DNA of 63,955 nucleotides, filler included. It is 8 parts of 8 records of this genome, joined end to end, with 100 filler letters (N's around TTAATTAATTAA, not from the genome) between each part and the next. Parts side by side here need not be neighbours in the genome. Positions count along the whole stretch, not along the records: positions 5,805 to 11,879 come from SRR31147125_14417; 7 more parts are not named here. One strand, written 5' to 3'. Made by a program: the position numbers and the translations under genes. Positions 2-53,033 of the stretch are shown here, in pieces; position 1 is the first letter of the stretch, and every line of letters begins with the position of its first letter. The notes beneath the pieces were generated by a model, which searched no databases, was not told the origin of the DNA, and saw only the letters and a program-made list of their open reading frames with translations.

Positions 2-1252
2 GCAGGTGTTAGAGCTGTTTATGATGAAGGAACAAGAACAGTAAGTCTGGTTTCAACTATTCCAGGAAAGTCTATGAAGTTAGAAAATGACACCAGTGGA
101 CTTCTTAAAAAAGTTGGTTTAATGGGAAAAACAACTAGTGGAAGATATAAACTACGTTCAATTTATAAAGGTCAGAGAGCTTCATTTATCATGGATGGGG
201 TTCAATATCAAAGAGAGTCGAATGAAGTGGAGTTTGATGGTCTGAAAATTACCCTTAGAGGAGAAACACCTCCAGGTGAAAGAGTCTCTGTAGAAGTTGC
301 ATATAATACCGAAGCAGCACTTAAAGAGGTAGCCCAATTTTTAGACGCTTATAACCAATCAATAACTTTATTAGAGGATAAAACTAAAAAAGATGCAATT
401 CTTCAAGGGGATACTACAGCAACATCTTTAATGCTTAGATTAAGAAAAAAGATGACTGATAATGTTAATGGTGTAGAGGATAAATTTAATCAACTCGCTT
501 TAATTGGTGTTGAAACAGACGAAAAGAGTGGACGTTTAACAATTAACGAAAGTAAATTTAGAGCAGCTTTAGATGAAAATCCACTGGAAATAAAAAAACT
601 ATTTACACAAAAAAAGGATAACACTGAACCGATTGTATTAGGATTAGGAAATAATAGAAGAACAGTATATGATCCAAAAGATCCATTACCAGGTGAAATC
701 GATGAGATTAAAGTGGTAGTTGGAGATAAAGAGTACTCAACAGATAGTAATTCTACTCCAATAATTAAAAAAAGTGAGTTATATAAATATCAAGTTTCAA
801 AAGTTGATCTAATAAAATACGTAATAAACAGAGATGTTAAAACTAAAGATGAAGCTTTGGCAAAATTAGGTAAAAAACTACCACCGAATGCTGTAGTAAT
901 TGATGATGTTACTGGTAAGTTTGAATTTGGAACTCCACCGAAAAGAGGGGTAAAGGTTTTTGTTGAAAATAAAAAAATAACAGCAAGAAGAAAAACAGGT
1001 ACTGATGAGGGTATCGCCACTAGAATGGAGGGTTTCTTAAAACCATACTCGACTTTTGGTGGAACACTGGAAAATCATATAAAAGCATACGATACCAACG
1101 TAAAAGATATTAACGAATGGATTGATAGAACAAATGAAAGACTTGATAAAAGAGAAGATTCATTGAAAAGAAGCTTTGGTTCAATGGAGGGTGCTTTACA
1201 AACAAATAAATCTGTTAGTGGATGGCTTTCTAGTCAGACAGCAGGGTTATAA
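2..1252 (+). CDS. fliD: Flagellar filament cap protein FliD, 5'-truncated, with a ~130-aa internal insertion
   Basis: Frame is open from base 2. FliD C-terminal motifs: DGVQYQRESN, FLDAYN, LQGD, LALIGVET, GRLTINESKFRAALDENP, and a terminal coiled coil ending F.SME.AL...S...WLSSQ. Confidence 0.88.
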   Translation, partial: AGVRAVYDEGTRTVSLVSTIPGKSMKLENDTSGLLKKVGLMGKTTSGRYKLRSIYKGQRASFIMDGVQYQRESNEVEFDGLKITLRGETPPGERVSVEVAYNTEAALKEVAQFLDAYNQSITLLEDKTKKDAILQGDTTATSLMLRLRKKMTDNVNGVEDKFNQLALIGVETDEKSGRLTINESKFRAALDENPLEIKKLFTQKKDNTEPIVLGLGNNRRTVYDPKDPLPGEIDEIKVVVGDKEYSTDSNSTPIIKKSELYKYQVSKVDLIKYVINRDVKTKDEALAKLGKKLPPNAVVIDDVTGKFEFGTPPKRGVKVFVENKKITARRKTGTDEGIATRMEGFLKPYSTFGGTLENHIKAYDTNVKDINEWIDRTNERLDKREDSLKRSFGSMEGALQTNKSVSGWLSSQTAGL

Positions 1253-5704: not shown

Positions 5705-5804
5705 NNNNNNNNNNNNNNNNNNNNNNNNNNNNNNNNNNNNNNNNNNNNTTAATTAATTAANNNNNNNNNNNNNNNNNNNNNNNNNNNNNNNNNNNNNNNN
5801 NNNN
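5705..5804. other. Artificial contig linker
   Basis: N44-TTAATTAATTAA-N44 (stops in all six frames). Confidence 0.99.
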
Positions 5805-5808
5805 ATCA

Positions 5809-5843
5809 CCCCCACCCTAACCCTCCCCCATCAATGGGGAGGG
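5809..5843. repeat. BoxC/REP-like palindrome at contig start
   Basis: CCCCCACCCTAA-CCCTCCCC-N7-GGGGAGGG hairpin. Confidence 0.65.
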
Positions 5844-5877
5844 AAGAAGAATAATAAACTATTACCTCATCACTGCT

Positions 5878-5924
5878 GGATCCCGGATTCCTCCAGAGAC
5901 GGACAAGCGAGTCCGGGATGACAA
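5878..5924 (-). repeat. GTCA-type REP-like palindrome with an enlarged loop
   Basis: Reverse complement TTGTCATCCCGGACT...ATCCGGGATCC, same family as the copy at 11850-11879. Confidence 0.7.
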
Positions 5925-6058
5925 GAAAATACTGTCAAAATTATGGCCCTCGCGGCATTTTTTTGGCGAAAAAAGACCCTCCCTGTTCGAAAAAGCGAAT
6001 ACAAACTTATAACCTACTGTAAACACTCCTGTTTTGAAGCTGTCGCATAACCTAAATT

Positions 6059-6074
6059 CGGCATGCAAATTGCT
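6059..6074 (+). promoter_or_regulatory. Sigma54 -24/-12 promoter
   Basis: CGGCATGCAAATTGCT (GG-N10-GC), about 40 bp before the RBS and ATG at 6115. Confidence 0.7.
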
Positions 6075-6114
6075 ATTTATAGAACTGAGGCGGAGTCAAA
6101 CAAGGAGGAGAACA

Positions 6115-6654
6115 ATGAAGGAACTAATCATTACTAACGAGATGAGAAGCAAGATTAATAAGTATCTAGGATATGAACTCATCAAGAAGAACGAAGTAGG
6201 CCATCATATCTATGATGAAGCTCCCGGCCTCGGACGAATAGGTATCGAAGGAAATGAATTTGGTCATGTCGTCACACATAAACAGCTTGATAGCAGTGGA
6301 AATATTGAGTGGCATAAGAGCCCAACGCCAAAAGCTAAAATCGGAGAGGTCAAACCGTTTCATTGCAAATTGACAACGGTATCTTCAAAGAAAGCTAAGA
6401 TCCTCATTGCCTCACTATTTCCTGAAGAAGCAGTTGACCAACACTTTCTTGATGACAATCTTGATACAATCAATACCTTGCGCAAACAGCTACATCTACT
6501 TAAGAACAATAAGGCTTTGGACTTCAAATATCAGAAGATGATCATGGGTCCAAATGACATGTTTCTTGAAAGCGCTCTCTACTATTACTATGGGGAAAAG
6601 ACATTAGAAGGTTTTGGTCCAATGATGTACGGTCCAAACGAAATGCTATTCTAA
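6115..6654 (+). CDS. Hypothetical protein
   Basis: ATG 6115 after AAGGAGGAG. 179 aa with no family recognised. C-terminal M.GPN(D/E)M repeat. Confidence 0.7.
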   Translation: MKELIITNEMRSKINKYLGYELIKKNEVGHHIYDEAPGLGRIGIEGNEFGHVVTHKQLDSSGNIEWHKSPTPKAKIGEVKPFHCKLTTVSSKKAKILIASLFPEEAVDQHFLDDNLDTINTLRKQLHLLKNNKALDFKYQKMIMGPNDMFLESALYYYYGEKTLEGFGPMMYGPNEMLF

Positions 6655-6655
6655 T

Positions 6656-7726
6656 TTAGACTTTATTCTCTTCTCTCATTCTGTAGATGATGACTAGGAC
6701 TTCGGCAACAGCTGCATAGAGTTCTTCCGGAACTTCATCGCCAACATCTAATTCCAACAAAGCCCAAGCAAGCGGCACATTTTGAGTAACAGGGACTCCT
6801 GCTTCCTTGGCAAAATCTCTTATCATCTCGGCAAAAGCACGCTGCCCTTTCGCAACAACCTGAGGAGCCATCATATCACCCTCATCATATTTGATAGCAA
6901 CTGCGACCTCAGTCGGGTTTGTCACAACAACATCTGCGCTAGCAACATTGTACTTCACATCACTCATGGCCAACTCTTGATGCAACTGCCTTCTTTGACC
7001 CTTAATTAAAGGATCTCCCTCGTCCTGCTTATACTCTCTCTTGACTTCTTCTTTAGACATACGCATCTCTTTTTTGTAGTGCCATCTCTGAAATCCAAAA
7101 TCGATTAGCGAAACCAGCAAAAAACAAATAAAGAGTTTAACCAAAAAAGATGCAATAACTGTTGCGGCAACTGAAGCCGATTGAGGCAACGTTCCAGTAA
7201 CAGTCAAAACGACCTGAGCCAAGTTATCTTTTACGGTTAAGTACGCTAAATAAAAGACAAGAAAAATCTTGAGAACATTCTTGATCAACTCAACAAGCAG
7301 AGTCATCTTAAACATATTCTTTATATTCGTAACCATGTTAAGGCGCTTAATTTGAGGTTTTAAAGGCTCTGTAGAAAAGACAGCCCCCACCTGAAGGAAG
7401 CTGATAAAAATAGCAATCAAAGCAACAATCCCCAAAAAAGGAGCAACTGTTTTTATGTATGTAAAGAAAGAATTCTCAGCTATTAAAAAAAGTTCTTCGT
7501 TGGTGATTATTTTTTTGGCACTGATACCAAAAGCGGAATGCATCAAAACTCTGAAGTAATTTCCGAAATGATCCCTCAAGGCATAAAGAGCACCAAAAGC
7601 AACAATCAAAATAACAATCGTATTAAGATCTCTGCTTTTCGACACCTGCCCTTTCTTTCGGGCATCTCTAAGTCGCTTCGGAGTCGCCTCCTCAGTCTTC
7701 TCTTGACTTGAGCCTTCGTCAGCCAT
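6656..7726 (-). CDS. sctU: Type III secretion export apparatus switch protein (SctU/EscU/YscU family; FlhB paralogue)
   Basis: EKTEEATPKRLRDARKKGQV, four TM segments, MSKEEVKREYKQDEGDP..K..RRQLHQE (injectisome-like), cleavage loop VVTNPTE. Confidence 0.85.
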   Translation of the reverse strand: MADEGSSQEKTEEATPKRLRDARKKGQVSKSRDLNTIVILIVAFGALYALRDHFGNYFRVLMHSAFGISAKKIITNEELFLIAENSFFTYIKTVAPFLGIVALIAIFISFLQVGAVFSTEPLKPQIKRLNMVTNIKNMFKMTLLVELIKNVLKIFLVFYLAYLTVKDNLAQVVLTVTGTLPQSASVAATVIASFLVKLFICFLLVSLIDFGFQRWHYKKEMRMSKEEVKREYKQDEGDPLIKGQRRQLHQELAMSDVKYNVASADVVVTNPTEVAVAIKYDEGDMMAPQVVAKGQRAFAEMIRDFAKEAGVPVTQNVPLAWALLELDVGDEVPEELYAAVAEVLVIIYRMREENKV

Positions 7727-7805
7727 CTACTTACCAAGCTTTAACCACTTTACCTATGTTGCCATTGATAACGTCAGCATAGACTAGGCGGCACCCCTTA
7801 TAGTA

Positions 7806-7813
7806 TTATCGGC
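7806..7813 (-). promoter_or_regulatory. Sigma28-type -10 element upstream of sctU
   Basis: Perfect GCCGATAA on the minus strand, 80 bp before the sctU start. The -35 match is weak. Confidence 0.45.
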
Positions 7814-7853
7814 TTATTCATGAGTCTAAGTTGCTCATATCCATAAGGAATTC

Positions 7854-8566
7854 TTATTTTTTATCTTTTTCTTCTGTTTCCTTTTCAGCCTCTTTATCTT
7901 CAGCAAAACTGGTATTTTTCAATAATTTTGAAGCCTTAGCAGCATATGGAGTCTTTAAATCGGGATCTAACTCAACAATCTTCTTCCATTCTTCTCTTGC
8001 AGCCTTAACATTGTGATCTTTATTAAAAAAGTTGATACCCTTGTCGTAGTGAACTTCAATCTTGGTTAAGACATCTTCAGGAATTCTATCTGTCGAAAGT
8101 TTCTGTGAAAAAAACCAAGCACCACCAATTGATAAACCGATCAGCAAAAGAACTAAGAGGAAAACATACTTAAACCTGTTCTTCCCTGGAGCTATCCAAG
8201 TTCCACTTGGAGTGACTAACCGAAACTGCATCCTATTTTCACCGACATTTATTATATCACCTGGCTTGAGCTCAACTTCCTCGATCTTTTTACCGTTTAC
8301 ATAACAACCCTTAAGACTATTCAAATCACTTAGGATATATTGCCCTTCAATAAAATTGATTACGGCATGTTTTCTCGAAACCGATTTATCACTTAAGGCT
8401 AGGTTGTTATTTTTACTCCTGCCTATAAAAAAAGTTTCGGTAATCAAAGGGATCTCCTGACCCGCCTTTTCACCGTGAGTAAAAAGAGTGATGCAACTGG
8501 AAAACTCTCAAGCGGAGTTCTCGCAGTTACTATGGAAGTCTCTTGTTCAGAAATTTCGTTTGGCAT
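7854..8566 (-). CDS. Membrane-anchored FHA-domain protein; one-base frameshift at A5 8481-8485
   Basis: FHA motifs IGRS..N, D..VSRKHA, DLNS..G.YVNG, then one TM and a TPR-like helical C-terminus. True start is probably ATG 8566 with RBS AGGGGG. Adding one base gives a continuous 237-aa protein, MPNEISEQETSIVT...LFFTHGEKAGQEIPL. Confidence 0.8.
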
Positions 8567-8705
8567 AGCTCCCCCTGCTAATAGCTTACAACTAATATCA
8601 TGAATCCGTATAATCATCAATATTTTCTACAGTGTTATACTAAACAGTTTCTGCAATTTCTAAATATGTTGATAAATCTTATTAAAAGCTTTAAATTCAT
8701 AAAAC

Positions 8706-10808
8706 ATGGCTAATAACGACGACAAACAAGGCTTTACACCCAGCAAAACCCCGGTTGGTCAATACTATCTCCTTGATAAAATTGCCCAGGGAGGCATGGC
8801 AGAGATTTATAAAGGACTCGCCTACGATCTTCACGGCTTAAAAAAGACTGTTGTTATCAAAAAGATCCTCCCTCAAATCGCTGCCGATCCAGAGTTTGTC
8901 CAGATGCTGATCAATGAAGCCAAGATCGCAGTTATGCTATCTCACGGAAACATAGCTCAGATACATGATCTCGGAAAAGTCGGTGAAGATTACTTCATGG
9001 TTATGGAATACGTCGACGGGAAAAGCCTTTCTCAGATTCATAAAAGAAGTCTAAAAAAGGGAAATCTTATACCTACTGAGTACGCATGCTACTTTATTGC
9101 CGAGGTTGCTAACGGCCTAAACTACATGCACAAAAGAAGCGATGCTCAAGGTAGAAATCTCGGCATTATCCACCGCGACATAAGCCCTCAGAATGTTATC
9201 GTATCCTACTCTGGAACAGTCAAAATCATCGATTTCGGCATTGCAAAAGCCGCTATTCAGATGGAAATAACAGACTCTGGCGTCTTGAAGGGGAAGTTTG
9301 CCTACATGTCACCTGAGCAAGCCAGAGGCGACATGATCGACCACAGGTCGGACATCTTCTCACTAGGCGTCATATTGCATGAAATCTTGACAGGCAAACG
9401 TCTGTTTAAGGGACAGAGCAAGAAAGAGACCCTCCAAAATGTCAGAAAAGCCTACGTTCCGGCCCCATCATCACTTAGAGCTGACCTCACTTCGGATATT
9501 GATAAGATTGTTAAAAAAGCCCTAAGCAAAGATCCTAAGAACAGGTATATGTGGGCTTCTGAGCTACACGATGACCTTATTAAATTTATCTATACAAATT
9601 TCCCAGACTTCAAACCCTCAACTATTACGGACTATGTTCGAAATCTATTTATTGAAGATATTGAGGAAAGAGAAGAACAAGAAGAAGACGCGCTAACTCC
9701 TTTTTTGATAATCGATCATACTCAGTCTGCTATTCTTCCTGAGCATCAGGAAAACACTGATATCATAAAGGTCCCTCCTCAACTTAAGGAATTCATGCTC
9801 GAAGAGCCAACACCTCTACCTGGAAAAGAAGAAGAGCTCGAAAAAGCCGAAGAGGAAGCTAAAGAAGAAAAAGAACCAAAAGAACCTTTTAATTTAAAGA
9901 ACTTCATTTCATCACATTGGAAGGGTTTAACAATTTCATTTTTCGCTGCTCTCATTTCACTCTTTGCAGCATTCACTTTTTTGGTAAACAACAACTATAT
10001 AAAAACGCCCTCTTTCTTAATGTTTCTGAAGTCCAAGACAAAACTAGTTGTTGATGTTAAGCCCCCGGATGCTCAAGTCTATTTTGGAGGAATTCTCCTG
10101 CAGGGCGACCCTCCGTTTAAGCTAAAAAACATCAAACATGGAGTCGATTACCAACTTATTATAGAAAAAGAGGGATTCATCCCTCAAACCAGACGCATCG
10201 TCCTTAAATCAGGTGAAAAGATGAGTCTAGAAATAAGCTTGAAGAAAGAACCTCCTCACTATGCAGAAATTTTGATCACTTCTTCACCTTCAGGAGCTTC
10301 AATATTTCTTGACGAAAAAGACACAAATCGAAAGACCCCAGCAGATCTTACAGGGCTTATTCCAGAGAAGATATACAGTGTTGGTCTCTTTTTAGATGAT
10401 CATATTTTTTGGAGTAGAGATGTAAGACTAAAAAGAGATGAAAGAAAATCGATAACAGCCGAGCTAGCTATAGATTATGCTGTACTCGATATCTCTTCAT
10501 ATCCGGCTGGCGCACAAATTACATTGAATGGGAAATTGGCGGGTAAAACCCCTTATAAAAACAAAAAAATGGATCCAAATGAACTTATAGATATCACTAT
10601 TATCAAACAGGGTTTCCATCCTTGGTCTGGAAAGATAAAAACAAAGGCCGGCAAAGCAAATGTTATCAGGGCAAGACTTGAGCGAACAAAGGAATATCTA
10701 AGACCTCATTACTTAAGAAACCTGGAGAAAGAGAAAACAAGACGGCTTGAAGAGCAAGAACCAGCCAATACAGATCCTGAAATAATGGCTCCGGCCCCTA
10801 TTCAGTAA
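8706..10808 (+). CDS. Hanks-type Ser/Thr protein kinase with TM and C-terminal PEGA domains
   Basis: IAQGGMAEIY, VIKK, IIHRDISPQN, DFG, YMSPEQARG and D.RSDIFSLG motifs, a TM at about aa 408-427, and three PEGA-like repeats (S.P.GA.I.L.G). Confidence 0.92.
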   Translation: MANNDDKQGFTPSKTPVGQYYLLDKIAQGGMAEIYKGLAYDLHGLKKTVVIKKILPQIAADPEFVQMLINEAKIAVMLSHGNIAQIHDLGKVGEDYFMVMEYVDGKSLSQIHKRSLKKGNLIPTEYACYFIAEVANGLNYMHKRSDAQGRNLGIIHRDISPQNVIVSYSGTVKIIDFGIAKAAIQMEITDSGVLKGKFAYMSPEQARGDMIDHRSDIFSLGVILHEILTGKRLFKGQSKKETLQNVRKAYVPAPSSLRADLTSDIDKIVKKALSKDPKNRYMWASELHDDLIKFIYTNFPDFKPSTITDYVRNLFIEDIEEREEQEEDALTPFLIIDHTQSAILPEHQENTDIIKVPPQLKEFMLEEPTPLPGKEEELEKAEEEAKEEKEPKEPFNLKNFISSHWKGLTISFFAALISLFAAFTFLVNNNYIKTPSFLMFLKSKTKLVVDVKPPDAQVYFGGILLQGDPPFKLKNIKHGVDYQLIIEKEGFIPQTRRIVLKSGEKMSLEISLKKEPPHYAEILITSSPSGASIFLDEKDTNRKTPADLTGLIPEKIYSVGLFLDDHIFWSRDVRLKRDERKSITAELAIDYAVLDISSYPAGAQITLNGKLAGKTPYKNKKMDPNELIDITIIKQGFHPWSGKIKTKAGKANVIRARLERTKEYLRPHYLRNLEKEKTRRLEEQEPANTDPEIMAPAPIQ

Positions 10809-10899
10809 ATCTTCTTGGATTGATATTTAACGTTCATGTTATTCTTGTTGAATTATAGAAATCGATTAGATATTATCGTTTTTTTAATTGGGGAAATTA

Positions 10900-11820
10900 A
10901 TGGCAAAAAAAGATAAAAAAGGCGATTTCGCGGATCAAACGATTGTTACATCAATTAGCAAAGTTGTTGGAATGCAGCAAAAGAGAGCCTATCTCTTCTT
11001 TCTAGCAGGTCCATTACTCGGCAAACTCTTTCCTCTTCAAGATGGAATAACAATTCTTGGTAGAAGTCCAGATATCGACATTGTGATTAATGACACCAGA
11101 ATCTCCAGACAACACGTCGAAATAACAGTTGATGGAGAAAATGTAACACTTAAAGATCTTGGAAGTACAAACGGGACCTTTGTAAACGGTGAGAGAATAA
11201 AGGAACATGTACTCAAGCAAGACGACAAAATTCAGATAAGTCCAGCTACCATCTTCAAATTCTCACTAGCAGATGAAGATGAAAAAATTGCATTCGATGA
11301 ACTATACGAACTCGGTGTTATTGACCCACTTACCAATACATATAATAAACGCTATTTTACAGATCGCTTAAAAGAAGAACTGAGTCACTCTAAGCGTTCT
11401 AATCTTGACTTATCCTTAATGATGATCGATATCGACTACTTCAAACAGGTCAACGACACATTTGGCCATCTAGCTGGAGACTACGTTTTAGGAAAGGTTT
11501 CAAAAATTCTTCAGGCAATGACCAGACACGAAGATATCGTAGCCCGTTACGGCGGTGAAGAATTTGCAATTGTTTTGAGAAGCACAAATGAGGCGGGAGC
11601 GATGCTCCTTGCTGACAGAATTAGACATACTGTTGAAACCACATCGATAAACTTTGAAGCAAAAAACATCAAATTCACAATCAGCGTAGGTGTCACATCT
11701 TTAAGTAAAGAAAATAATTACGACAACCTTGAAGAGATGATTGCTGATGCCGATAAAGGTCTCTACTACTCCAAAGAACACGGTAGAAACAAAACCACCC
11801 ACATCAATCAGATTAAATAG
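10900..11820 (+). CDS. FHA-GGDEF diguanylate cyclase (DgcB-like architecture)
   Basis: N-terminal tail with DQTIVT. FHA motifs LGRS, ISRQH, DLGSTNGTFVNG. GGDEF motifs DPLT...N, DID.FK.VND.FGH..GD, I-site RHED and active site GGEEF. Confidence 0.92.
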   Translation: MAKKDKKGDFADQTIVTSISKVVGMQQKRAYLFFLAGPLLGKLFPLQDGITILGRSPDIDIVINDTRISRQHVEITVDGENVTLKDLGSTNGTFVNGERIKEHVLKQDDKIQISPATIFKFSLADEDEKIAFDELYELGVIDPLTNTYNKRYFTDRLKEELSHSKRSNLDLSLMMIDIDYFKQVNDTFGHLAGDYVLGKVSKILQAMTRHEDIVARYGGEEFAIVLRSTNEAGAMLLADRIRHTVETTSINFEAKNIKFTISVGVTSLSKENNYDNLEEMIADADKGLYYSKEHGRNKTTHINQIK

Positions 11821-11849
11821 CTTTCTACAAGCAAGTCCGTTACCAAAAG

Positions 11850-11879
11850 TTGTCATCCTCGGACTTGATCCGAGGATCT
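11850..11879 (+). repeat. GTCA-type REP-like palindrome at contig end
   Basis: TTGTCATCCTCGGACTTGATCCGAGGATCT hairpin. Confidence 0.75.
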
Positions 11880-11979
11880 NNNNNNNNNNNNNNNNNNNNN
11901 NNNNNNNNNNNNNNNNNNNNNNNTTAATTAATTAANNNNNNNNNNNNNNNNNNNNNNNNNNNNNNNNNNNNNNNNNNNN
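11880..11979. other. Artificial contig linker
   Basis: N44-TTAATTAATTAA-N44. Confidence 0.99.
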
Positions 11980-12003: not shown

Positions 12004-12702
12004 CTAGAATCCTAAAGCCAAACTGACCCATAAAATGTTATCCAGATCATCATCAAGACCAATGGAATAGTTCCAGCTGATGGACAGGGATTCATTTATA
12101 GACTTGCTTGCTGATAAACCAATCATACTAACGGCATCTTCTTTAGGTAGTTCCAGAAAACGACTTGAATAGGTTCCAACACCATACATTACTCCCCAAT
12201 CAACACCTATCACGGGATAAGAAACTGACGTCTCCAGCCAGTAAGCAGATTCATTCAACTCACTATCTGTGCTACTTTGACCTGGGACAAAATAACCTGA
12301 CACACCCAACACACCATAACCTAAACTACCGTACAGTTCATACTCATAATCAGCGTCATCATTATAGCTGTCAAAATCATAAGTATAAACAACAGCACCA
12401 ATAGCGCTACTTAACGAACCGGTTGGTAAACTCAGCTCAATATAGGGATCGGATTCCAGCGAAGTACCACCATCAAAACTGACACTTGAATACCAAACAC
12501 CAAAAGAAAGCGCTTTATAAGCCGCACCAACAGTTCCCTGCAATTCAGCTTGCCCTGACTGACTAACACCTCTCCATACATAATTCGATACCACTGACAC
12601 ATCACCTGAAAATTCGAATTCCTGAGCATTAGCTGGCAGAGCTGTCATACCTAATAATCCAACAATAAATACTATAATAGAAATCCGTGTCATCTTTTTC
12701 AT
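12004..12702 (-). CDS. TorF/TIGR02001-family putative outer-membrane porin
   Basis: Signal peptide ending ANA-Q, V..VSNYVWRG.SQ motif, amphipathic beta strands, C-terminal Phe. ATG 12702 follows RBS AAAGGAG. Confidence 0.8.
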   Translation of the reverse strand: MKKMTRISIIVFIVGLLGMTALPANAQEFEFSGDVSVVSNYVWRGVSQSGQAELQGTVGAAYKALSFGVWYSSVSFDGGTSLESDPYIELSLPTGSLSSAIGAVVYTYDFDSYNDDADYEYELYGSLGYGVLGVSGYFVPGQSSTDSELNESAYWLETSVSYPVIGVDWGVMYGVGTYSSRFLELPKEDAVSMIGLSASKSINESLSISWNYSIGLDDDLDNILWVSLALGF

Positions 12703-12926
12703 AATTTGTACTCCTTTCAATCCAGAGAATAAATTCACTCCTTACTTCACCTGTGTTGTCCACCTGTTTACGTTTACGTTTTTCTGCATGCAATAATAAC
12801 AGAATAATAATAAGGAACTAAAATCATATTTCAGGTTGCGTTTTATTTTCTGGCCATCACAATCCATCTTTAGTTCATATCGTAATTCTATAGAAATGAC
12901 TTTTATACCCTGTCACCCCGACTTAG

Positions 12927-13462: not shown

Positions 13463-13506
13463 CAACAATTTTGTATAATAAATATCATTAAGATACATTT
13501 TTGTAG
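13463..13506. promoter_or_regulatory. Candidate operator pair 2 (autoregulatory)
   Basis: CAACA-ATTT-TGTAT (13463-13476) and ATACA-TTTT-TGTAG (13493-13506), again 30 bp apart, about 90 bp upstream of the activator start. Confidence 0.68.
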
Positions 13507-13596
13507 GATATGTGTAAAATAACAAACTTTCTTTTTATTCATAATGAACTTTTTTAGTGTATTTATCTGATTCGTAATACTGCAGGAGAGAACACC

Positions 13597-15162
13597 ATGG
13601 CACAAGCCACAACAATTCGGAGCACAAAATCTTCATCCGATAATATTATCCGAAAACTATCCATTTTGGTTGAAATAAACCAGGCTGTGAGCCGATCCTT
13701 AAATTTACAGGAATCCCTCAATGCCATTCTGCAAATCCTGGATAAATCCTATAACATCAAATCAGGAGCTGTCTTTTTAAATGACGAAGATCAGAAAGGT
13801 CTGGTCATGGCAGCCTCTATTGGTTATCGCCATGACACGGCAAAGAGAAACTATTCCATGGGAGAAGGCTTAACAGGCCGAATTGCTGAAACGGGTAAAC
13901 CCATTGTTGCGCCACAGGTCAGCAAAGAACCACTCTTTCTCAATCGCCTGAGCTCCTGGGATCCTCATAAAGATCGTGAACAGACTTTTGTAGGGACTCC
14001 AATCGTTATGGATTACAAAACATTAGGTGTATTAATTGTTAATCTGCCATACAGTTCAAAAAGAGATTATGATAGCACGTTAAAATTCCTGACACTGGTT
14101 GCATCCGCCCTGCTGCAACCCATCCAATTGCACCATCTGGTGACTGTTGAGCGTAAAAGAATGCTCGACGAAAAAGTGTTTATCAATGAAAAATTAAAAG
14201 AGGAATTTAGTTTTAAAAACATCATTGGTAATAGCAGCCAGATGAGAGAGGTCTATGAAAAAGTCGCCCAGGTAGCCAGAGCAAATACAACCGTTCTCAT
14301 TCGCGGTGAATCAGGTACCGGCAAAGAGTTAATTGCTCAGGCGATTCATTACAATTCCTTTAGAAATGAAAAACCCTTTATCCAGGTTAACTGTGCAGCC
14401 ATACCAGAAAGCCTGATAGAGTCGGAATTTTTCGGCCATGAAAAAGGTGCGTTTACAGGTGCCGTGACACGAAAAAAGGGACGATTCGAACTGGCTAATG
14501 GCGGTACCATTTTTCTGGATGAAATCGGTGATCTGTCACCAATGACACAGGTCAAATTATTACGGGTGCTACAGGAGCAGGAGTTTGAGCGAGTTGGCGG
14601 AACAGAAACCATAAAAGTGGATGTTCGCATTATTACAGCGACACATGCAAACCTTGAAGATGCCATCACAGATGGCCGATTCAGGGAAGACCTTTATTAC
14701 CGGTTAAATGTCTTTACCATTTTCCTCCCACCGTTGCGCGACAGAAAAACAGACATCGACTTACTTGCCGACCATTTCATGCTTAAATATGGCCGGCAGC
14801 ACAACAAGGCCATCCGGCGTATATCAACCCCTGCCATAGACATGCTAAATGCCTATCATTGGCCGGGAAATGTACGGGAACTGGAAAACTGCATAGAGCG
14901 GGCTGTGCTTGTCTGTGAGGATCAGGTTATACATAGTTACAATCTGCCGCCAACCTTACAAACCGCTGAAAGCAGTGACACCGCACCACGTCGCTCACTT
15001 GAAAAAGCAGTGGCCTATTATGAAAAAGAACTCATTCAGGATGCTCTAAAATCCAGCAATGGTAATCAGGCTAAAGCAGCACGGTTCCTGGGGACAAGCG
15101 AACGAATCATGGGCTATAAAATCAAAAAACATAGCATTGATGTAAACAGATTTAAACGATAA
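13597..15162 (+). CDS. NifA-like sigma54-dependent activator (GAF-AAA+-Fis HTH)
   Basis: N-terminal GAF (GEGLTG, EPLFLNR), GESGTGKE, ESEFFGHEKGAFTGA, FLDEIG, FREDLYYRLNV, WPGNVRELEN and HTH GNQAKAARFLG. Confidence 0.92.
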   Translation: MAQATTIRSTKSSSDNIIRKLSILVEINQAVSRSLNLQESLNAILQILDKSYNIKSGAVFLNDEDQKGLVMAASIGYRHDTAKRNYSMGEGLTGRIAETGKPIVAPQVSKEPLFLNRLSSWDPHKDREQTFVGTPIVMDYKTLGVLIVNLPYSSKRDYDSTLKFLTLVASALLQPIQLHHLVTVERKRMLDEKVFINEKLKEEFSFKNIIGNSSQMREVYEKVAQVARANTTVLIRGESGTGKELIAQAIHYNSFRNEKPFIQVNCAAIPESLIESEFFGHEKGAFTGAVTRKKGRFELANGGTIFLDEIGDLSPMTQVKLLRVLQEQEFERVGGTETIKVDVRIITATHANLEDAITDGRFREDLYYRLNVFTIFLPPLRDRKTDIDLLADHFMLKYGRQHNKAIRRISTPAIDMLNAYHWPGNVRELENCIERAVLVCEDQVIHSYNLPPTLQTAESSDTAPRRSLEKAVAYYEKELIQDALKSSNGNQAKAARFLGTSERIMGYKIKKHSIDVNRFKR

Positions 15163-20468: not shown

Positions 20469-20922
20469 TTACGAGTTACGATCTTTAAGGATCAAAAGCA
20501 ATTCATATAGAAAATCCCTGGCCGTACACCCGGGAATATTTGCAAGAGCATCCTCGGCATTTTTAAGATCGGTTTGTATTTCAGATTTCGCAGCCGCAAT
20601 GGTACCTGATTCTTCAAAAAGAAGATAGGCTTGTTTTAAATCTGAACTGGAAAGTTTTCCTTTATTTCTAATATCATGCAATTTTTTCAGCACATTCTTG
20701 TCTGCGAACTGGTTCGCATGAGCAATGAGAAATGTTTTTTTATTTTCCTCCAGATCACTTCCGGTATCTTTTCCCAAAACTTCCTGTTCGGCAATAATGT
20801 CCAGCAAATCATCCTGTACCTGAAAAGCCCTCCCAAGCATCTCTCCATACATGTGCATGGACTGAATTTGCTTTTGAGATCCATTTCCAATCATGGCACC
20901 CATTTCACATGCAACGGCAAAA
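20469..20922 (-). CDS. Polyprenyl diphosphate synthase, C-terminal part (5' truncated by contig end)
   Basis: G..LG.AFQVQDDLLD, GK..GSDL.E.KKT (second Asp-rich motif). Confidence 0.88.
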
Positions 20923-21022
20923 NNNNNNNNNNNNNNNNNNNNNNNNNNNNNNNNNNNNNNNNNNNNTTAATTAATTAANNNNNNNNNNNNNNNNNNNNNN
21001 NNNNNNNNNNNNNNNNNNNNNN
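20923..21022. other. Artificial contig linker
   Basis: N44-TTAATTAATTAA-N44. Confidence 0.99.
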
Positions 21023-30118: not shown

Positions 30119-30218
30119 NNNNNNNNNNNNNNNNNNNNNNNNNNNNNNNNNNNNNNNNNNNNTTAATTAATTAANNNNNNNNNNNNNNNNNNNNNNNNNN
30201 NNNNNNNNNNNNNNNNNN
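30119..30218. other. Artificial contig linker
   Basis: N44-TTAATTAATTAA-N44. Confidence 0.99.
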
Positions 30219-34740: not shown

Positions 34741-35661
34741 ATGAAACAAAAAATCTTATTAGTAACGATAATAATAGCAATATTTATTAGCACCTCATAC
34801 TCACAAATACGTGTACATTCTGACGGAGATGTTTCAATAGGAACATATTCTGACTATGGGCAAACTCTAAATATAAACAGTTATGACAAAGGAGGATTAT
34901 ATAGTAGAGTTTATCATTCAAGTGAATGGAAGCAAAATATTGTGAGTGATGTATACAAAAATACAACATGTTCATATGTAGTCCATTCAAGGTATTCAAA
35001 TAGTGACGTATTTTATGTAAGAGGAGATGGTTATGCTGCTGCATATGGCGGGTTTTACACTTTTTCAGACAAAAAACTTAAAACAAATATTAATACTATT
35101 GGTGATCCTATGGAAAAAATAATGAGATTAAGGGGAGTTACCTATAATTTATTGTCAGATTTAACTTCTGAATCTACAAAGAATAGTAAAAAATTAAACT
35201 ATGGCCTAATTGCTCAGGAAGTTGAAGAAATTGTTCCTGAGGTAGTTGAAACAATGCACGACAGCATAAAAACAATTTCCTATGAAAAACTTGTACCATT
35301 ATTGATCGAAGGTATTAAACAACAACAGGAACATATTTCTGATTTAGAAAAAAAGATTGAATCATTAAATTCTATGTTGACCCATAATGAAATTAATACT
35401 GAAGATAAAAATTCATATAATTATCCAAATCCGTTTAATACAAGTACTCAGATAGATTTAACAATTCCAAACAAGGTAGTAAAAGCGTCTTTAAACATTA
35501 TGGACTCTAATGGTAGATTAATTAAATGTATTCATATTACTGATCGTGGCAAATCAACAATAACTTTAAAAGCTTCAGAATTTACGTCAGGAGTTTATAC
35601 ATACGCACTTATTGCTGATGGAATAATACTTAACGAAAATAAGATGATTATTAAAAAATAA
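34741..35661 (+). CDS. Secreted protein with peptidase-S74 (tail-fibre chaperone) domain, coiled coil and T9SS type A sorting domain
   Basis: FYVRGDG, SDKKLKTNI, LRGVTY, YGLIAQEVE..VPEVV, Y..LVPLLIEGIKQQQ, then NYPNPF...SGVYTY.L...K.II.K. Confidence 0.85.
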   Translation: MKQKILLVTIIIAIFISTSYSQIRVHSDGDVSIGTYSDYGQTLNINSYDKGGLYSRVYHSSEWKQNIVSDVYKNTTCSYVVHSRYSNSDVFYVRGDGYAAAYGGFYTFSDKKLKTNINTIGDPMEKIMRLRGVTYNLLSDLTSESTKNSKKLNYGLIAQEVEEIVPEVVETMHDSIKTISYEKLVPLLIEGIKQQQEHISDLEKKIESLNSMLTHNEINTEDKNSYNYPNPFNTSTQIDLTIPNKVVKASLNIMDSNGRLIKCIHITDRGKSTITLKASEFTSGVYTYALIADGIILNENKMIIKK

Positions 35662-37839: not shown

Positions 37840-37939
37840 NNNNNNNNNNNNNNNNNNNNNNNNNNNNNNNNNNNNNNNNNNNNTTAATTAATTAANNNNN
37901 NNNNNNNNNNNNNNNNNNNNNNNNNNNNNNNNNNNNNNN
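37840..37939. other. Artificial contig linker
   Basis: N44-TTAATTAATTAA-N44. Confidence 0.99.
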
Positions 37940-38114: not shown

Positions 38115-38444
38115 CTAAAATAAACCTATTAATAATGCACCCACAACTATTAAAAAAGTTCCGAAAATTTTCTTTTTAGTTATTTTCTCACCAAGCATTT
38201 TATAAGAGATTAACATAGTCCAAATATATGCTAAAGATGTTAGCGGCAAAACAACTGAGTATGGTAAAAAACGTAGAAGAACTATGTTTAATGCAGCAGC
38301 TACAACATACAAAAAACCACCAATATAAAGGTTCTTGTTTTTTAATGTAGCAAGTATGCTGTCGGAACCTGATGCTAGCTTGAAACAATAGCTTGCAAGC
38401 GAACCCAAAAAAGTCATGCTGATAAGAATTATGATATATATCAC
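38115..38444 (-). CDS. Small EamA/ArnE-F-like flippase subunit
   Basis: 109 aa with four TMs. LPYSVVLP.TSL.YIW and LGEKIT motifs. Confidence 0.78.
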   Translation of the reverse strand: MIYIIILISMTFLGSLASYCFKLASGSDSILATLKNKNLYIGGFLYVVAAALNIVLLRFLPYSVVLPLTSLAYIWTMLISYKMLGEKITKKKIFGTFLIVVGALLIGLF

Positions 38445-38785
38445 TATTCATCACCTCCTGCTATAAATACAACACCAGTAATTATTACAACTACGGCGAT
38501 CAATTTGGTTATTGTAATAGGCTCTCCTAATATGAAAAAGCCAATAACTATCGTTAATACATAGTTGATGCTAAGAAGCGGCTGTAATACCGATAACGAA
38601 CCGAATCTGTACGCGATAATCATAACAACTCCGCCAATGCCGTAAAGGACAAAACCAAAGAATATAAACAAAATGCTATTGGATGATGCGCTAAGCTTCC
38701 ATAGTAGTTGACCAAAACAAGCACATAGTGCAGATATAACCATCAACGATATGCCTTTTGAGTTGTTTTTAAAAGAATTAATCAT
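38444..38785 (-). CDS. Small EamA/ArnE-F-like flippase subunit
   Basis: 113 aa. GQLLWK, G.LSVLQP.LS.NY and LGEPIT motifs. Confidence 0.78.
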   Translation of the reverse strand: MINSFKNNSKGISLMVISALCACFGQLLWKLSASSNSILFIFFGFVLYGIGGVVMIIAYRFGSLSVLQPLLSINYVLTIVIGFFILGEPITITKLIAVVVIITGVVFIAGGDE

Positions 38786-41110: not shown

Positions 41111-41196
41111 TATTTAAATTGTCTAATATTGATAACGATAATATCTATATTTATTATATATAGTTTTAAATTTTAAAAGAATTGGAAGTGGAAAAA

Positions 41197-42578
41197 TTGA
41201 AAATTTTTAATACTCAAACGAGAAAAAAAGAAGAACTGAAAACTATTGAACCTAATAAAGTGAAAATATATGCATGTGGTCCTACTGTATATAATTTTTT
41301 TCATATAGGAAACGCAAGACCTTTTATAGTTTTTGATACATTAAGAAGATACCTGGAGTATGCAGGGTATGATGTGACATTTGTCCAAAACTTTACTGAT
41401 ATAGATGATAAGATGATCATTAATGCAAATGAAGAAGGAATAACAGTTAAGGAATTAGCAGAGAGGTTTATTGCAGAGTATTATAAAGATGCAAAAGCTT
41501 TGAATATTAAAGAGGCGCATATTCATCCAAAAGCTACAGAGCATATGGATGAAATTATAGATCTGATTAAAAAACTTGTGGATAATGGATATGCATACGA
41601 AGCTAATGGCGATGTGTATTTTGATACAGCAAAGTTTGAAGGCTACGGAAAGCTTTCTGGTCAATCGATTGATGACCTTGAATCGGGTTCTAGAGTTGAA
41701 GTAAATGATGTAAAGAAAAACCCAATTGATTTTGCTCTTTGGAAAGCAAAAAAAGAAGGTGAGCCTTTTTGGGAAAGTCCTTTTTCTGAAGGTAGACCAG
41801 GGTGGCATATTGAGTGTAGTGCTATGAGCATGAAGTATCTTGGCGAAACTATAGATATTCATGGTGGGGGTCAGGATTTGGTTTTCCCTCATCACGAAAA
41901 TGAAGTTGCTCAATCGGAAGGTGCAACTGGTAAGCCATTTTGTAACTATTGGATGCATAATGGATATATCAATATAGACAATAAAAAGATGTCGAAGTCG
42001 GCGGGTAACTTTTTTACCGTGCGTGATATTATAAAAGAAGTTGATCCTATTGCGGTAAGGTTGTTTATGCTTTCTTCTCACTATAGAAATCCAATTAACT
42101 TTTCTGAGGCGTTATTAACCCAAGCAGTTTCTGCGCTAGGAAGAATAAAGAACTTTTTGAAAACTTAGACTTTATCGTTGATAATGATAAGAATGTTGAT
42201 GGAGTTGGCATAGAAGAGATAAATACTGAATATAAGAATAAGTTTATAAAAGCAATGGATGATGACCTGAATACTGCCGATGCTATTGGCGTTGTTTTTG
42301 AATATATTAAAGATATTAACCAAAAGTTTGCGGATGGTGCAAATGCAGATGAAGCAAAAAAAGCAAAAGAGTTTGTAACTGAACTATTGGATGTATTGGG
42401 TTTGTACGCAGAGGAAAAATCTGATATTCCAGCAGAAGTTTTGGATTTGGTTGAACAAAGAAAAACTGCTCGCGCTGAGAAAAACTGGGCAAGAGCTGAT
42501 GAGATAAGAGATGAGCTAAAAGAGATGGGCTACGAGGTAAAAGACACAGCTGATGGTGCTAAAATTAGTAAGATATAA
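41197..42578 (+). CDS. cysS: Cysteine--tRNA ligase; one-base frameshift at T5 42154-42158
   Basis: [28 protein letters not shown] and KMSKS motifs. The second ORF supplies MDDDLNT and the anticodon domain (AD.IRDEL). Adding one T joins them. Confidence 0.95.
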
Positions 42579-42666
42579 GAGATTTTTAAACTGAAAAACA
42601 TAATTTTTGTGACTATTAGTATCTTTGATGTCCGAAATAGTTGTATCGAAAGGACGTGGTTTTAAC

Positions 42667-43344
42667 ATGACTAAGCTATATAAAACACTATCATGTTTAG
42701 CTTCTATAATGCTGCTTATTTTAATGATATTCATGGTTATCCATTTTTTGGGATTGAATAAAGGCATCTATGGTTCTTTGCAAAGAAAGTATAAGGTGAA
42801 CGAAGACATTGGGATATCTCAAAATGATTTGGATAGAGTTACCGATGTTTTCATAGATTATACTAAAGGTAAAGCTGAAAGTATATCTGTATTAGTTGAT
42901 ATTGATGGCGAGACCAAGGAGATGTTTAACCAAAGAGAAACCCTGCATATGGTTGACGTTAAAAACCTTTATGTAGGTATGATAAGAATTTGTTATATAT
43001 TCGCAGCACTGATAGTTTTGATCTTTGGGTTTTTGTTTGCTGCCAAGAAAAAAGATATCGTTTTCTCAATGCATAAAAAAGTGTCGATTGGGTTTATTTT
43101 GTTCTGCGTAATACTTGGAATATACTTTATTGTGGATTTTAATAGTTTTTGGACGAATGTGCATTTAATATTGTTTACCAATGATTTGTGGCTTTTAAAC
43201 CCAATGACAGATAGAATGATTTTGATGTTTCCTTTAGAATTTTTCTTATCGCTTAGCATTATAGTTTTGACCGTATTTGCTGTTGTTTTTGTTGCTTTAA
43301 TGGCTATAACCAACAAGCTATCTAAAAAAGCAACAGTAGTTTAG
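42667..43344 (+). CDS. TIGR01906/DUF1461 membrane protein
   Basis: FN.RE..HM.DVK.L and F......H...F.NDLWL.NP..D.MI.M.P..FF motifs. Confidence 0.85.
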   Translation: MTKLYKTLSCLASIMLLILMIFMVIHFLGLNKGIYGSLQRKYKVNEDIGISQNDLDRVTDVFIDYTKGKAESISVLVDIDGETKEMFNQRETLHMVDVKNLYVGMIRICYIFAALIVLIFGFLFAAKKKDIVFSMHKKVSIGFILFCVILGIYFIVDFNSFWTNVHLILFTNDLWLLNPMTDRMILMFPLEFFLSLSIIVLTVFAVVFVALMAITNKLSKKATVV

Positions 43345-43353
43345 GAGATTATT

Positions 43354-44363
43354 TTGGAAAGAAATATATTAGCTATTGAAACATCTTGTGATGAAACTGC
43401 TGCTGCTATAGTTAGAAACGGCAGGGAAGTGTTATCCAATGAAATTTACTCCCAAATTGAAATTCATGCCGAATATGGAGGGGTTGTTCCTGAGATTGCA
43501 TCAAGGAATCATACTCAAAAGCTACCATATATCGTACAACAGGCAATCGATAACAGCGCGCTTACTATTGATGATATAACCGATATTGCAGTCACTAATG
43601 GTCCTGGTTTAGTTGGAGCACTATTAACAGGAGTTTCTTTTGCTAAGGCCTTTGCTTATGCTAATAAAAAACCACTAATTGCTGTTAATCATATCGAGGG
43701 GCATATATGCTCGAACTATATTAGTGATAAAGAGCTTAAACCGCCATTTATATGTTTGGTGGTTTCTGGCGGACATACGCATATAGTGAAAGTGGATAAT
43801 GATATGGGCTATACTCTTTTGGGTCAAACAAGAGATGATGCTGCTGGTGAGGCTTTTGACAAAGTAGCACGGGTAATTGGTCTTGCTTATCCTGGTGGAC
43901 CAAACTTAGAAAAGCTAGCAAAAGATGGCGATGAAGATAAGTATGTTTACCCAACTGCTTTTAAAAAGAAAACCATTTGGATTTTTCGTTTAGTGGCATT
44001 AAAACTGCTGTTATAAATCATTTACACAAGATGAACCAAGCTGGCGAACATTACAAAAAGGCAGATGTTGCTGCTAGTTTTCAAAAAAACTTAGTTAACA
44101 ATTTAGCTGATAATACATTTGAAGCTGTAAAAAGAGAAGGTTTTAATATGCTTTGTATTGCTGGAGGAGTTTCATCTAATAATTATTTGCGTGAAGAATT
44201 TACTAAGCGAGCAACGGAGTTGAGCGTTAGATTATGCTTGCCAGATAAAAGGTATTGCACTGATAATGCGGCGATGATTGCTAGTGCTGCTTATTTTAAA
44301 CCTGATAATATCGGTAGTTTAGATTTAAACGCTGTACCGACGATGAAGCTAGAGTTTAAATAA
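43354..44363 (+). CDS. tsaD: tRNA N6-threonylcarbamoyltransferase TsaD; one-base frameshift at A5 ~43963-43967
   Basis: [54 protein letters not shown] and CTDNAAMI motifs, split over two ORFs. Confidence 0.95.
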
Positions 44364-44388: not shown

Positions 44389-44488
44389 NNNNNNNNNNNN
44401 NNNNNNNNNNNNNNNNNNNNNNNNNNNNNNNNTTAATTAATTAANNNNNNNNNNNNNNNNNNNNNNNNNNNNNNNNNNNNNNNNNNNN
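44389..44488. other. Artificial contig linker
   Basis: N44-TTAATTAATTAA-N44. Confidence 0.99.
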
Positions 44489-47642: not shown

Positions 47643-47996
47643 TTAAACTTCGATACATGCATATGCAATTGCATGTGTATTTGTGTGTGTAATGGTAAGA
47701 TGAACGATTTCGTCATCATTAAAATAATCACTTAAAACATAAGGTTTACCATATTCATCAGGAAGTACTGAAAAATCAATATAATATGCTGTACCATGTC
47801 CTTTTGAGATTGCTTTGAATATAGCTTCTTTTGCTGCAAATCTACCACCTAAAAACGTAATTTTAGTATTTTCATCTGCAATGTTTTCATAAATCTTAAA
47901 TTCTTCTTTACTTAAGATGCGATGAATGAAACGATCATCTGCAATTTCTCTAATACGATCAAGATCGACCAAATCAATACCCATGCCTTTAATCAT
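47643..47996 (-). CDS. acpS: Holo-ACP synthase
   Basis: G.GIDLV, GRFAAKEA.FKA, GKP and .TITH motifs. Confidence 0.92.
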   Translation of the reverse strand: MIKGMGIDLVDLDRIREIADDRFIHRILSKEEFKIYENIADENTKITFLGGRFAAKEAIFKAISKGHGTAYYIDFSVLPDEYGKPYVLSDYFNDDEIVHLTITHTNTHAIAYACIEV

Positions 47997-52933: not shown

Positions 52934-53033
52934 NNNNNNNNNNNNNNNNNNNNNNNNNNNNNNNNNNNNNNNNNNNNTTAATTAATTAANNNNNNNNNNN
53001 NNNNNNNNNNNNNNNNNNNNNNNNNNNNNNNNN
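52934..53033. other. Artificial contig linker
   Basis: N44-TTAATTAATTAA-N44. Confidence 0.99.

Follow-up and report, generated by a model that had tools for sequence, protein, structure and literature searches.

What does an export-switch gene of the type III secretion family do next to a serine/threonine kinase and a diguanylate cyclase? This question is raised by a module of four genes in a stretch of 63,955 nucleotides (the window, by which we mean the whole stretch of DNA analyzed here). A gene for an SctU/FlhB-family export-switch protein, here called U, and a gene for a membrane protein with an FHA domain (the FHA-membrane gene) lie on the minus strand, divergent from the gene of a PEGA-domain kinase, which is directly followed by the gene of a cyclase with FHA and GGDEF domains. 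A first-pass annotation had read the module as a self-contained circuit in which an envelope-sensing kinase phosphorylates both FHA proteins, coupling contact sensing to cyclic di-GMP (c-di-GMP) and type III export. Our analysis suggests, with somewhat better than even confidence, that the module is best explained as a kinase-cyclase circuit together with an SctU-family U of the Myxococcus-type (Myxo-type) lineage. The link from kinase to cyclase appears well supported by the recurrence and conservation of the two genes, and the pair of a kinase and a DgcB-type cyclase is, as judged from these comparisons, a solid and testable lead.

The window consists of eight contigs joined by seven artificial linkers of 44 N + TTAATTAATTAA + 44 N, seen as N runs at 5705-5804, 11880-11979, 20923-21022, 30119-30218, 37840-37939, 44389-44488 and 52934-53033, and gene neighbourhoods read across these linkers are invalid. 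The whole module lies on one contig piece of 6,075 bases (5805..11879; guanine-plus-cytosine (GC) content 0.395), which is bounded by linkers at both ends. Listing of open reading frames (ORFs) and Pfam searches recovered the four genes and domains where they had been annotated, and the earlier statement that they share one contig is true in a narrow sense, as the four genes and one 206-amino-acid (206-aa) ORF without a family alone fill the piece. U (356 aa; minus strand, 6656..7726; PF01312, E 3e-114) has NPTE in place of NPTH at its cleavage motif. The FHA-membrane gene (minus strand, 7854..8566; FHA PF00498, E 7e-21) is predicted to encode an N-terminal tail and an FHA domain, followed by a single membrane helix and a short C-terminal part that resembles TPR; its longest ORF covers only 7854-8447. 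By ORF coordinates, a divergent intergenic region (8567..8705) separates the putative FHA-membrane/U operon from the putative kinase/cyclase operon, in which a receptor-type Hanks kinase of 700 aa (plus strand, 8706..10808; Pkinase, E 2e-41; three PEGA stretches) is followed 79 nt downstream on the same strand by a DgcB-type diguanylate cyclase of 310 aa (plus strand, 10888..11820; FHA, E 2e-22; GGDEF, E 1e-47). A promoter and terminator scan of the piece was uninformative (10 promoter-like sites versus 12.4 expected by chance).

The relatives of U place the module in a lineage. Its 120 nearest proteins were 57-76% identical and came from metagenomes and from metagenome-assembled genomes (MAGs) titled 'Deltaproteobacteria'. 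A profile of U and 40 of these proteins, run over one genome per species, yielded 80 loci, and 47 of these (L001-L044, L046, L047 and L056; 44-76% identity) formed one clade, the UBA10199-type set; stretches of up to 10 kb on each side of U were examined at each locus. UBA10199 occurs in the isolate names of L022, L032 and L038, and L020 (nXX_bin1) is assigned to the UBA10199 phylum in the available part of a published study (PMC7602337). By these sequence relationships the contig is from a UBA10199-type bacterium. The deltaproteobacterial lineage named by the first-pass annotation has to be replaced by the UBA10199 phylum, Deltaproteobacteria being found only as a label in NCBI titles.

The best sequence match of the cyclase in the PDB was 6HBZ (phmmer, 6hbz_A, E 2e-48, aa 40-305), and an AlphaFold model built on 121 sequences, confident outside the tail with a predicted local distance difference test score (pLDDT) of 89.4, had the same entry as its best fold match (Foldseek, 6hbz_B, E 3e-28, 36% identity); 6HBZ is the full-length DgcB of Bdellovibrio. 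An FHA domain (aa 56-117), a linker helix and a GGDEF domain (aa 145-302) with GGEEF and an RxxD I-site follow one another. GGEEF and RxxD occurred together in 116 of 120 cyclases and in the window protein, and the consensus FHA residues for phospho-Thr binding (G58, R59, S73, R74, H76 and N95) were invariant in the alignment. Tail residues 1-28 were disordered in the model (pLDDT < 50), and a single Thr, the only invariant residue of the tail, was present in 121 of 121 aligned sequences at a fixed 38-40 residues before the Gly-Arg of the FHA domain. The codon of this candidate phospho-acceptor lies at 10939..10941 on the plus strand; numbering from the TTG makes it residue 18, and numbering from the ATG at 10900 makes it residue 14. 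This ATG, which stands behind GGGGA, is the probable true start, and with this start the invariant Thr would be residue 14, as in DgcB. These results bear out the DgcB-type layout of tail, FHA and GGDEF that the first-pass annotation had proposed.

The surroundings of the tail Thr resemble those in DgcB in part. In the motif logo the order is small/hydrophobic, Glu/Asp, Lys/Gln/Arg, Thr, Val/Ile, Ile/Val, Thr, Ser/Gln, Val/Ile; 78 of 120 sequences showed the complete pattern, T-[VI]-[IV]-T-x-[VI] plus an acidic -2 residue, and the remainder keep acidic-x-Thr. According to the available text of the 2019 DgcB paper, phosphorylated Thr14 (pThr14) of the DgcB tail binds the FHA domain of the same protein, a design based on the pThr14-FHA complex gave a constitutively active mutant, and the conserved tail positions comprise a Glu at -2 and hydrophobic residues at each of -3, +2 and +3, with Ser at +1. 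The same text supports what the first-pass annotation had said of DgcB, namely its layout, its activation through a phospho-Thr and the need for it in predation; DgcB licenses prey invasion in Bdellovibrio. In the present family, positions -3, -2 and +2 fit this pattern, +1 is Val or Ile and not Ser, and 76 of 78 sequences have Thr at +3.

The kinase begins with its kinase domain (aa 22-288); a hydrophobic segment lies at about aa 409-432, and three PEGA repeats reach as far as aa 661. The membrane helix was recognized by eye, a crude helix scan having missed it in the window protein. The best solved relative of the kinase domain was PknB (172 bits), and the matches included the PknB chain of 6I2P, an entry whose GarA chain was matched by the FHA part of the cyclase. 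The ATP-binding Lys and the HRD, DFG and SPE motifs are present in the window kinase. Among the 21 UBA10199-type orthologues, DFG and S/APE were kept in all 21 and HRD in 20, and the window protein has all of these. The proposal that this kinase is the cognate partner of a DgcB-type cyclase was strengthened by our comparison: the gene pair recurs in 14 related loci, and the kinase that activates DgcB itself is described as unidentified in the available text of the DgcB paper, where a phosphatase gene is reported in the same operon. We found nothing on a kinase for FHA-GGDEF diguanylate cyclases among the titles of the literature from 2019 on.

How far is the arrangement conserved? The kinase gene adjoins U divergently in 21 of the 47 UBA10199-type loci. 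Behind it, the cyclase gene follows in 14 of these 21; in five the contig ends first, and in two (L004 and L015) the cyclase gene is absent and a ChlI-like gene takes its place after the kinase. Apart from the window, the FHA-membrane gene was found in only four of the 47 loci (L001, L007, L015 and L047). The four-gene order that the first-pass annotation had put forward for checking is thus not general. Every one of the 21 kinase-linked loci belongs to a single subclade (26 rows in a quick tree; support 96/83 in a careful tree), so that the arrangement arose once. Within it, the junction of kinase and U persists over a range of 46-76% identity for U and 38-63% for the kinase, and the order FG<STK<U> is retained while the genes downstream of U vary among at least three contexts. 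In addition, six contigs are apparently common to the best cyclase matches and to the U-bearing contigs, as paired by equal size, five of them among the nearest U matches and one being L005; judged from this pairing, these metagenome contigs add independent carriers of both genes.

In the 14 of 47 loci annotated with Pfam, the neighbours of U were housekeeping genes (gcvTHP-folD, rpsB-tsf-pyrH-frr-uppS-cdsA-dxr-rseP, purMN, pcmt and hemB). A gene for protein-L-isoaspartate O-methyltransferase is convergent with U in L002, L004, L006, L007, L010, L015 and L040 (by Pfam in six, by sequence clustering in L010), and in the window and L001 this position downstream of U is occupied by the 206-aa ORF. 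The latter (plus strand, 6034..6654), convergent with U, has no Pfam, NCBIfam or Atlas match, the Atlas search giving nothing usable, and a 64%-identical copy at the same place was found in L001 only. In the kinase-less subclade, U (at about 10001-11100) stands directly behind hemB in L026, L029, L030 and L041 and is followed by VWA and OmpA-domain genes in L026 and L029 and by long ORFs without a Pfam family in L030 and L041; in L038, U is not behind hemB, yet similar long ORFs follow it.

The family placement of U was examined by model scores and by trees. Against NCBIfam, U scored 358.3 with the SctU model TIGR01404 (cut-off 358, just passed) and 342.2 with the FlhB model TIGR00328 (cut-off 349.25, not reached). 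The difference between the SctU and FlhB scores was +12 to +37 bits in five of five UBA10199 proteins, +13 to +47.5 in four of four clustered Myxo-type proteins and +50 in an unlinked U of Myxococcota; it was -65 to -164 in five of five FlhB proteins, +70 in RhcU and +127 in YscU. A careful maximum-likelihood tree (LG+C20, 363 columns) was built on 69 rows, comprising the window, 21 UBA10199-type U, 33 more distant loci and 14 named references, with nine FlhB rows in all; it omits 26 of the 47 UBA10199-type rows, all but two of which are in the quick tree, which gives the same picture. In the careful tree the UBA10199 U formed a clade (99/98) nested with the U of the true type III clusters L050 (96/73) and L045 (97/86), inside a clade (97/82) that holds the U of clusters from Myxococcaceae, Archangiaceae, Acidobacteriota and Thermoanaerobaculia. 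These Myxo-type clusters contain YscO-like and SctP-like genes, FHA-SctQ, FliO, SctR/S/T, SctV, SctN, SctL and a short SctJ. The FlhB references and the control L080 formed a clade of their own (98/95), and a branch with support 100/96 set the Myxo-type and FlhB clades together against the Ysc, Rhc, Hrc and Spa types. This split agrees with the published position of the 'Myxo' family, which is described in the available text of PMC3459982 as adjoining the flagellar root and as the earliest-branching non-flagellar family. Only two columns were diagnostic between FlhB and Myxo, which is too few; the UBA10199 majority has the Myxo state in both (96%, and 53% versus 47%). Taken together, it is quite likely that U is non-flagellar. 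The named FlhB genes held a separate curiosity: L083 (AP024100.1 462317-463372), a gene of a Ralstonia megaplasmid annotated as FlhB, joined the Thermomicrobium FlhB on a long branch away from other Ralstonia FlhB, a join flagged as possibly false by the tree tool.

The first-pass annotation had called U an orphan, for which the 6 kb of this contig alone would be too short a basis, although the piece contained no sctR/S/T or other core type III gene by Pfam. The relatives bear the term out: a tblastn search for 13 type III components, with queries drawn from the more distant loci, gave no match at the 47 UBA10199-type loci within the stretches examined, whereas L045 and 27 of the 32 remaining distant loci each gave several components. 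There was also no flagellar gene in the 14 Pfam-annotated UBA10199-type loci. The UBA10199 U keeps 41 of the 44 columns that are conserved in FlhB, Myxo-type and classical SctU alike, including the Asn-Pro of the cleavage site, which is kept in all or nearly all, and residues of the membrane domain; at column A264 Ala is found in only about half. The stem branch of the UBA10199 U clade is not long (0.33, with a median end branch of 0.43). NPTE in place of NPTH is found in 95 of the 120 nearest proteins as well as in the window, and among 27 loci of the kinase subclade there are 11 with NPTE and one with NPLE.

The remaining secretion components gave little further information. SctV candidates P0241 and P0244, obtained with the L050 SctV against representatives at 50%, proved to be of Schekmanbacteria and Chlamydiota type, and their assignment to UBA10199 was rejected. 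None of the 120 listed SctV matches could be paired with a U-bearing contig, which is uninformative. A second, independent clade of unlinked U (100/100) was observed in Myxococcota/Polyangiales MAGs (L053, L054, L055, L058 and L074; U at about 10001-11000), where type III neighbours are absent, NPTH is kept and, in L058 and L074, priA follows U. The FHA domain recurs in related machines: in three of three Myxo-type clusters examined it is fused N-terminally to the sorting-platform protein SctQ, which carries the FliM/FliN C-terminal domain (L045:5951-7558, L049:5142-6512 and L060:6325-7917), suggesting that this type III family natively uses phospho-threonine control. L060 also has a gene for a 240-aa FHA protein directly after sctV (13493-14215).

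The FHA-membrane gene of the window is frameshifted at a run of five T near 8479-8483. Counted from the ATG at 8566, which is the true start, the first 28 codons of the gene are in the other frame (8566-8483), and they align with the intact homologues of L001, L007, L015 and L047 (213-231 aa). The frameshift is as likely to be a homopolymer sequencing error as a real defect. Several other genes of the window are split or truncated, which suggests an indel-prone assembly and fits the frameshift: cysS (41182-42168 and 42255-42578), tsaD (43354-44016 and 43977-44363), two EamA halves at 38115-38785 and a truncated polyprenyl synthase gene at 20469-20903. With the frameshift read through, the N-terminal tail contains Glu-Thr-Ser-Ile-Val, the same core as in DgcB, and a DgcB-like motif is thus present in the tails of both FHA proteins, in line with the tails that the first-pass annotation had assumed for them. 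An identity with SctD/YscD was considered for this protein and rejected, as only about 80 residues follow the helix, compared with periplasmic ring-building domains of about 250 aa, and no match to the YscD periplasmic part was obtained; the Yop-YscD_cpl match reflects the generic FHA fold, and the Atlas look-alikes were FHA(+TPR) proteins. A predicted complex of the L001 U with the L001 FHA-membrane protein gave a score of 0.00, which is no answer and no evidence either way.

From these observations the following mechanism can be proposed. Two divergent operons, kinase/cyclase to the right and FHA-membrane/U to the left, would form the unit. An envelope or outside cue would activate the PknB-like kinase through its extracytoplasmic PEGA part, and the kinase would phosphorylate the invariant tail Thr of the cyclase. 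The cyclase's own FHA domain would then bind the phospho-tail, the dimer would rearrange, and the GGEEF sites would make c-di-GMP until the product occupies the RxxD I-site. Activation by the phospho-tail, the mechanism demonstrated for Bdellovibrio DgcB, would be the most likely course for this cyclase, in view of the precedents of DgcB and of PknB with GarA. For U, the most likely place would still be in an export gate whose genes are at another site in the genome, where its switch may be altered, because nearly all family-wide conserved residues are kept. The same kinase may act on the tail of the FHA-membrane protein and, through that protein or through c-di-GMP, influence U. Control of U, or of its partner FHA protein, by the kinase block is suggested by the conserved junction and adjacency only; a real link between kinase and U is supported in that the junction survives changing flanks, the U operon has received an inserted FHA gene, and FHA is fused to SctQ in all three related clusters examined. 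A bolder version of this proposal would hold that these bacteria have a dispersed, Myxococcus-like needle-less type III system in which U is wired to a surface-sensing kinase and a DgcB-type cyclase, so that one cue (prey, host or surface) raises c-di-GMP and gates export through phospho-threonine/FHA contacts, and that PEGA kinases are the class that switches on DgcB-type cyclases; at present this version seems doubtful.

Several points weigh against coupling, and they are also the points from which a simple inheritance of gene order could be argued. On that reading the kinase and cyclase form one system and U stands beside them by chance in one subclade. The arrangement has a single origin, and the linkage is absent from the whole hemB-linked sister subclade (0 of 20 loci, with U behind hemB in four annotated ones). 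Even within the kinase subclade, the kinase was not found beside U at six further members: L002, L012 and L039 keep U without it despite 3.8-10 kb of upstream sequence, no kinase was found within the 1.2 kb available in L047, and the contigs of L011 and L013 stop at the start of U or within about 430 nt of it. Conversely, the two loci with a ChlI-like gene keep the kinase without the cyclase, and L040 has about 2.5 kb of other genes between kinase and U. The folD-gcvTH genes are often retained on the far side of the block, so that part of the gene order is plain inheritance, and no Ser/Thr column specific to the kinase-linked subclade was found in U beyond the ancestral Thr of NPTH. The circuit itself also meets difficulties. 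The FHA-membrane gene is broken in this assembly. The +3 residue of the cyclase tail, which enters the specificity pocket and is Val in DgcB, is nearly always Thr. The catalytic loop of the kinase reads HRD[IV]SPQN in 20 of 21 orthologues (HRDISPQN in the window), with Ser at the site where Hanks kinases usually have Lys. However, chance adjacency accounts less well for a junction that persists down to 46% U identity and 38% kinase identity and through at least three downstream contexts, for the extra FHA gene placed before U in the same operon in the window's subgroup, and for the FHA-SctQ fusions of genuine related type III clusters. Gene order inherited without functional coupling is therefore a possibility to be taken seriously, if one that we would put below even.

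Two other explanations concern U itself. It may be the flagellar FlhB of bacteria whose flagellar genes are scattered, in which case the kinase and cyclase would tune motility through c-di-GMP. The closest solved full-length relatives of U agree with this, as FlhB chains (197, 192, 178 and 155 bits) come ahead of SpaS (114 bits); so do the named plasmid genes, among which Bacillus FlhB is the best match (38%; YscU/AscU 35%), and the position of the Myxo-type and FlhB clades on one side of the 100/96 branch. Forcing the UBA10199 U together with FlhB lowered the log-likelihood by 22.4, which the approximately unbiased test did not reject (p 0.064), and the tree check suggested by the first-pass annotation thus gave a Myxo-type SctU by topology and model scores but left a grouping with FlhB standing. 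Some UBA10199 members are magnetotactic, which by inference suggests motility, although the text makes no mention of flagella (PMC7602337). A fliD (filament cap) fragment in the window (74-1252) could be added, but this fragment sits on a separate contig piece whose composition differs, and we rejected it as evidence for a flagellum in the organism of the module. As the tree nests U with clustered non-flagellar U, the FlhB score stays below its cut-off, the score difference has the SctU sign throughout and the opposite sign in every FlhB tested, and no flagellar gene was found near U in the Pfam-annotated loci, the flagellar explanation appears rather improbable. Alternatively, U may have left the secretion machine and found a new use as a self-cleaving membrane protein that stands alone, for example one that serves the phospho-threonine module as target or scaffold. 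The absence of other type III genes from the stretches examined around the 47 U genes would fit, as would the small size of one complete genome of the UBA10199 group (only 2.75 Mb) and the second clade of unlinked U in Myxococcota. The cytoplasmic loop of U, moreover, is altered (P131 is lost, S140 is Lys in all, and G134N is found in 23 of 27 kinase-subclade loci), and together with the replacement of the NPTH His by Glu in the window's subgroup these changes, which also count against the proposed role of U, could reflect a changed role. Nevertheless, the nearly complete set of family-wide residues and the unremarkable stem branch speak for continued function in a secretion machine, and scattered type III loci are known, for example in Chlamydiales, from the available text of PMC3459982. 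Re-use of U outside secretion thus seems unlikely, if slightly less so than a flagellar role.

The preferred reading, a kinase-cyclase circuit beside a Myxo-type SctU, matters in two ways. A conserved natural pair of a kinase and a DgcB-type cyclase offers concrete proteins for in vitro testing. In addition, an uncultured phylum has as a whole kept, without secretion neighbours, a switch gene for type III export that comes from the earliest-branching family of the non-flagellar kind, which points to either a dispersed system or a re-used protein, and the meaning of this unlinked U depends on the presence of the remaining type III machine in these genomes. As to the predatory or host-associated life that had been suggested for the lineage, the points in its favour are the resemblances to known systems and the one small complete genome mentioned above, and nothing further; it may be entertained on that footing. 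One circular UBA10199 MAG is mentioned by Singleton et al.

The origin of the module piece relative to the rest of the window should be considered here. With the highest GC among the eight pieces, it also had the lowest tetranucleotide correlations (0.78-0.85 with the other seven, which correlate at 0.84-0.94 among themselves), and one may doubt that it belongs to the same genome bin. The genes that seem to flank the module, FliD and amylase on the left and a porin and a NifA-like gene on the right, are all on other pieces. Piece 1 (GC 0.30) continues after the fliD fragment with a glucodextranase-like gene and an 823-aa amylase-family gene. Piece 3 carries a TorF-family porin gene (12004-12738) and a GAF-sigma54-HTH activator (13597-15162) that scored 534.5 against a NifA equivalog cut-off of 528.85, with no nif genes on the piece. 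Other pieces encode WhiA (47989-48936), HPr kinase (51431-52369), the lipoprotein transacylase Lit (42625-43344) and a protein with a T9SS sorting tail (34741-35661), a mix that is unusual for a 'deltaproteobacterial' bin, of which the module piece is also a compositional outlier.

We found no literature describing this arrangement in searches for orphan FlhB/SctU or for PEGA-domain kinases with FHA, and it is most usefully compared with known systems part by part. The cyclase resembles Bdellovibrio bacteriovorus DgcB (Bd0742; 6HBZ, 6HC0 and 6HC1) in its order of tail, FHA and GGDEF, in its length of about 300 aa, in GGEEF and RxxD, and in a tail Thr, residue 14 from the likely ATG, with an acidic residue at -2 and branched hydrophobics after it; it differs in overall sequence (36% identity), in tail positions +1 to +3, which are V/I-I/V-T here and S-I-V in DgcB, and in the kinase gene directly upstream, where the DgcB operon has a phosphatase gene. 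Mycobacterial PknB with GarA/OdhI offers a second likeness, as the kinase domain is nearest PknB and the FHA part of the cyclase matches GarA and OdhI chains. In published accounts available in part, PknB phosphorylates the tail-FHA protein GarA, and GarA/OdhI follow the same self-tail-binding logic (DgcB paper). However, the output here is a fused GGDEF domain instead of the steric inhibition of metabolic enzymes, and the sensor is built of PEGA repeats instead of PASTA. A Sorangium system, as far as described in the DgcB paper, has the same three parts in the same order, a kinase and then tail-FHA-GGDEF, whereas here they are divided between two genes 79 nt apart and the kinase has a membrane helix and PEGA repeats.

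U, in turn, shares with flagellar FlhB the Pfam family, the length, the four-helix membrane part, the self-cleaving C-domain and 31-38% identity, but falls below the FlhB cut-off and outside the FlhB reference clade and has no flagellar neighbours. It lies in the same clade (97/82) as the U of the Myxococcus-type secretion system of type III, which is non-flagellar (the family named 'Myxo' by Abby and Rocha 2012; T3SS* in M. xanthus), from which it differs in being unlinked in 47 of 47 loci and in its loop and NPTH changes. In M. xanthus, as related in the available text of a 2025 review (PMC12428579), the Tad-like Kil system and the needle-less T3SS* are used at the sites of contact with prey, kil clusters show an enrichment of FHA proteins, the T3SS* is used in prey lysis, and how the machines find the contact site is an open matter, which agrees with the Myxococcus background (FHA proteins of the Kil system and an atypical type III system in contact killing) given in the first-pass annotation. 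Set beside these systems, an unlinked Myxo-type U that is conserved across its phylum and tied to a kinase-cyclase pair in one subclade is a new variant of what is known.

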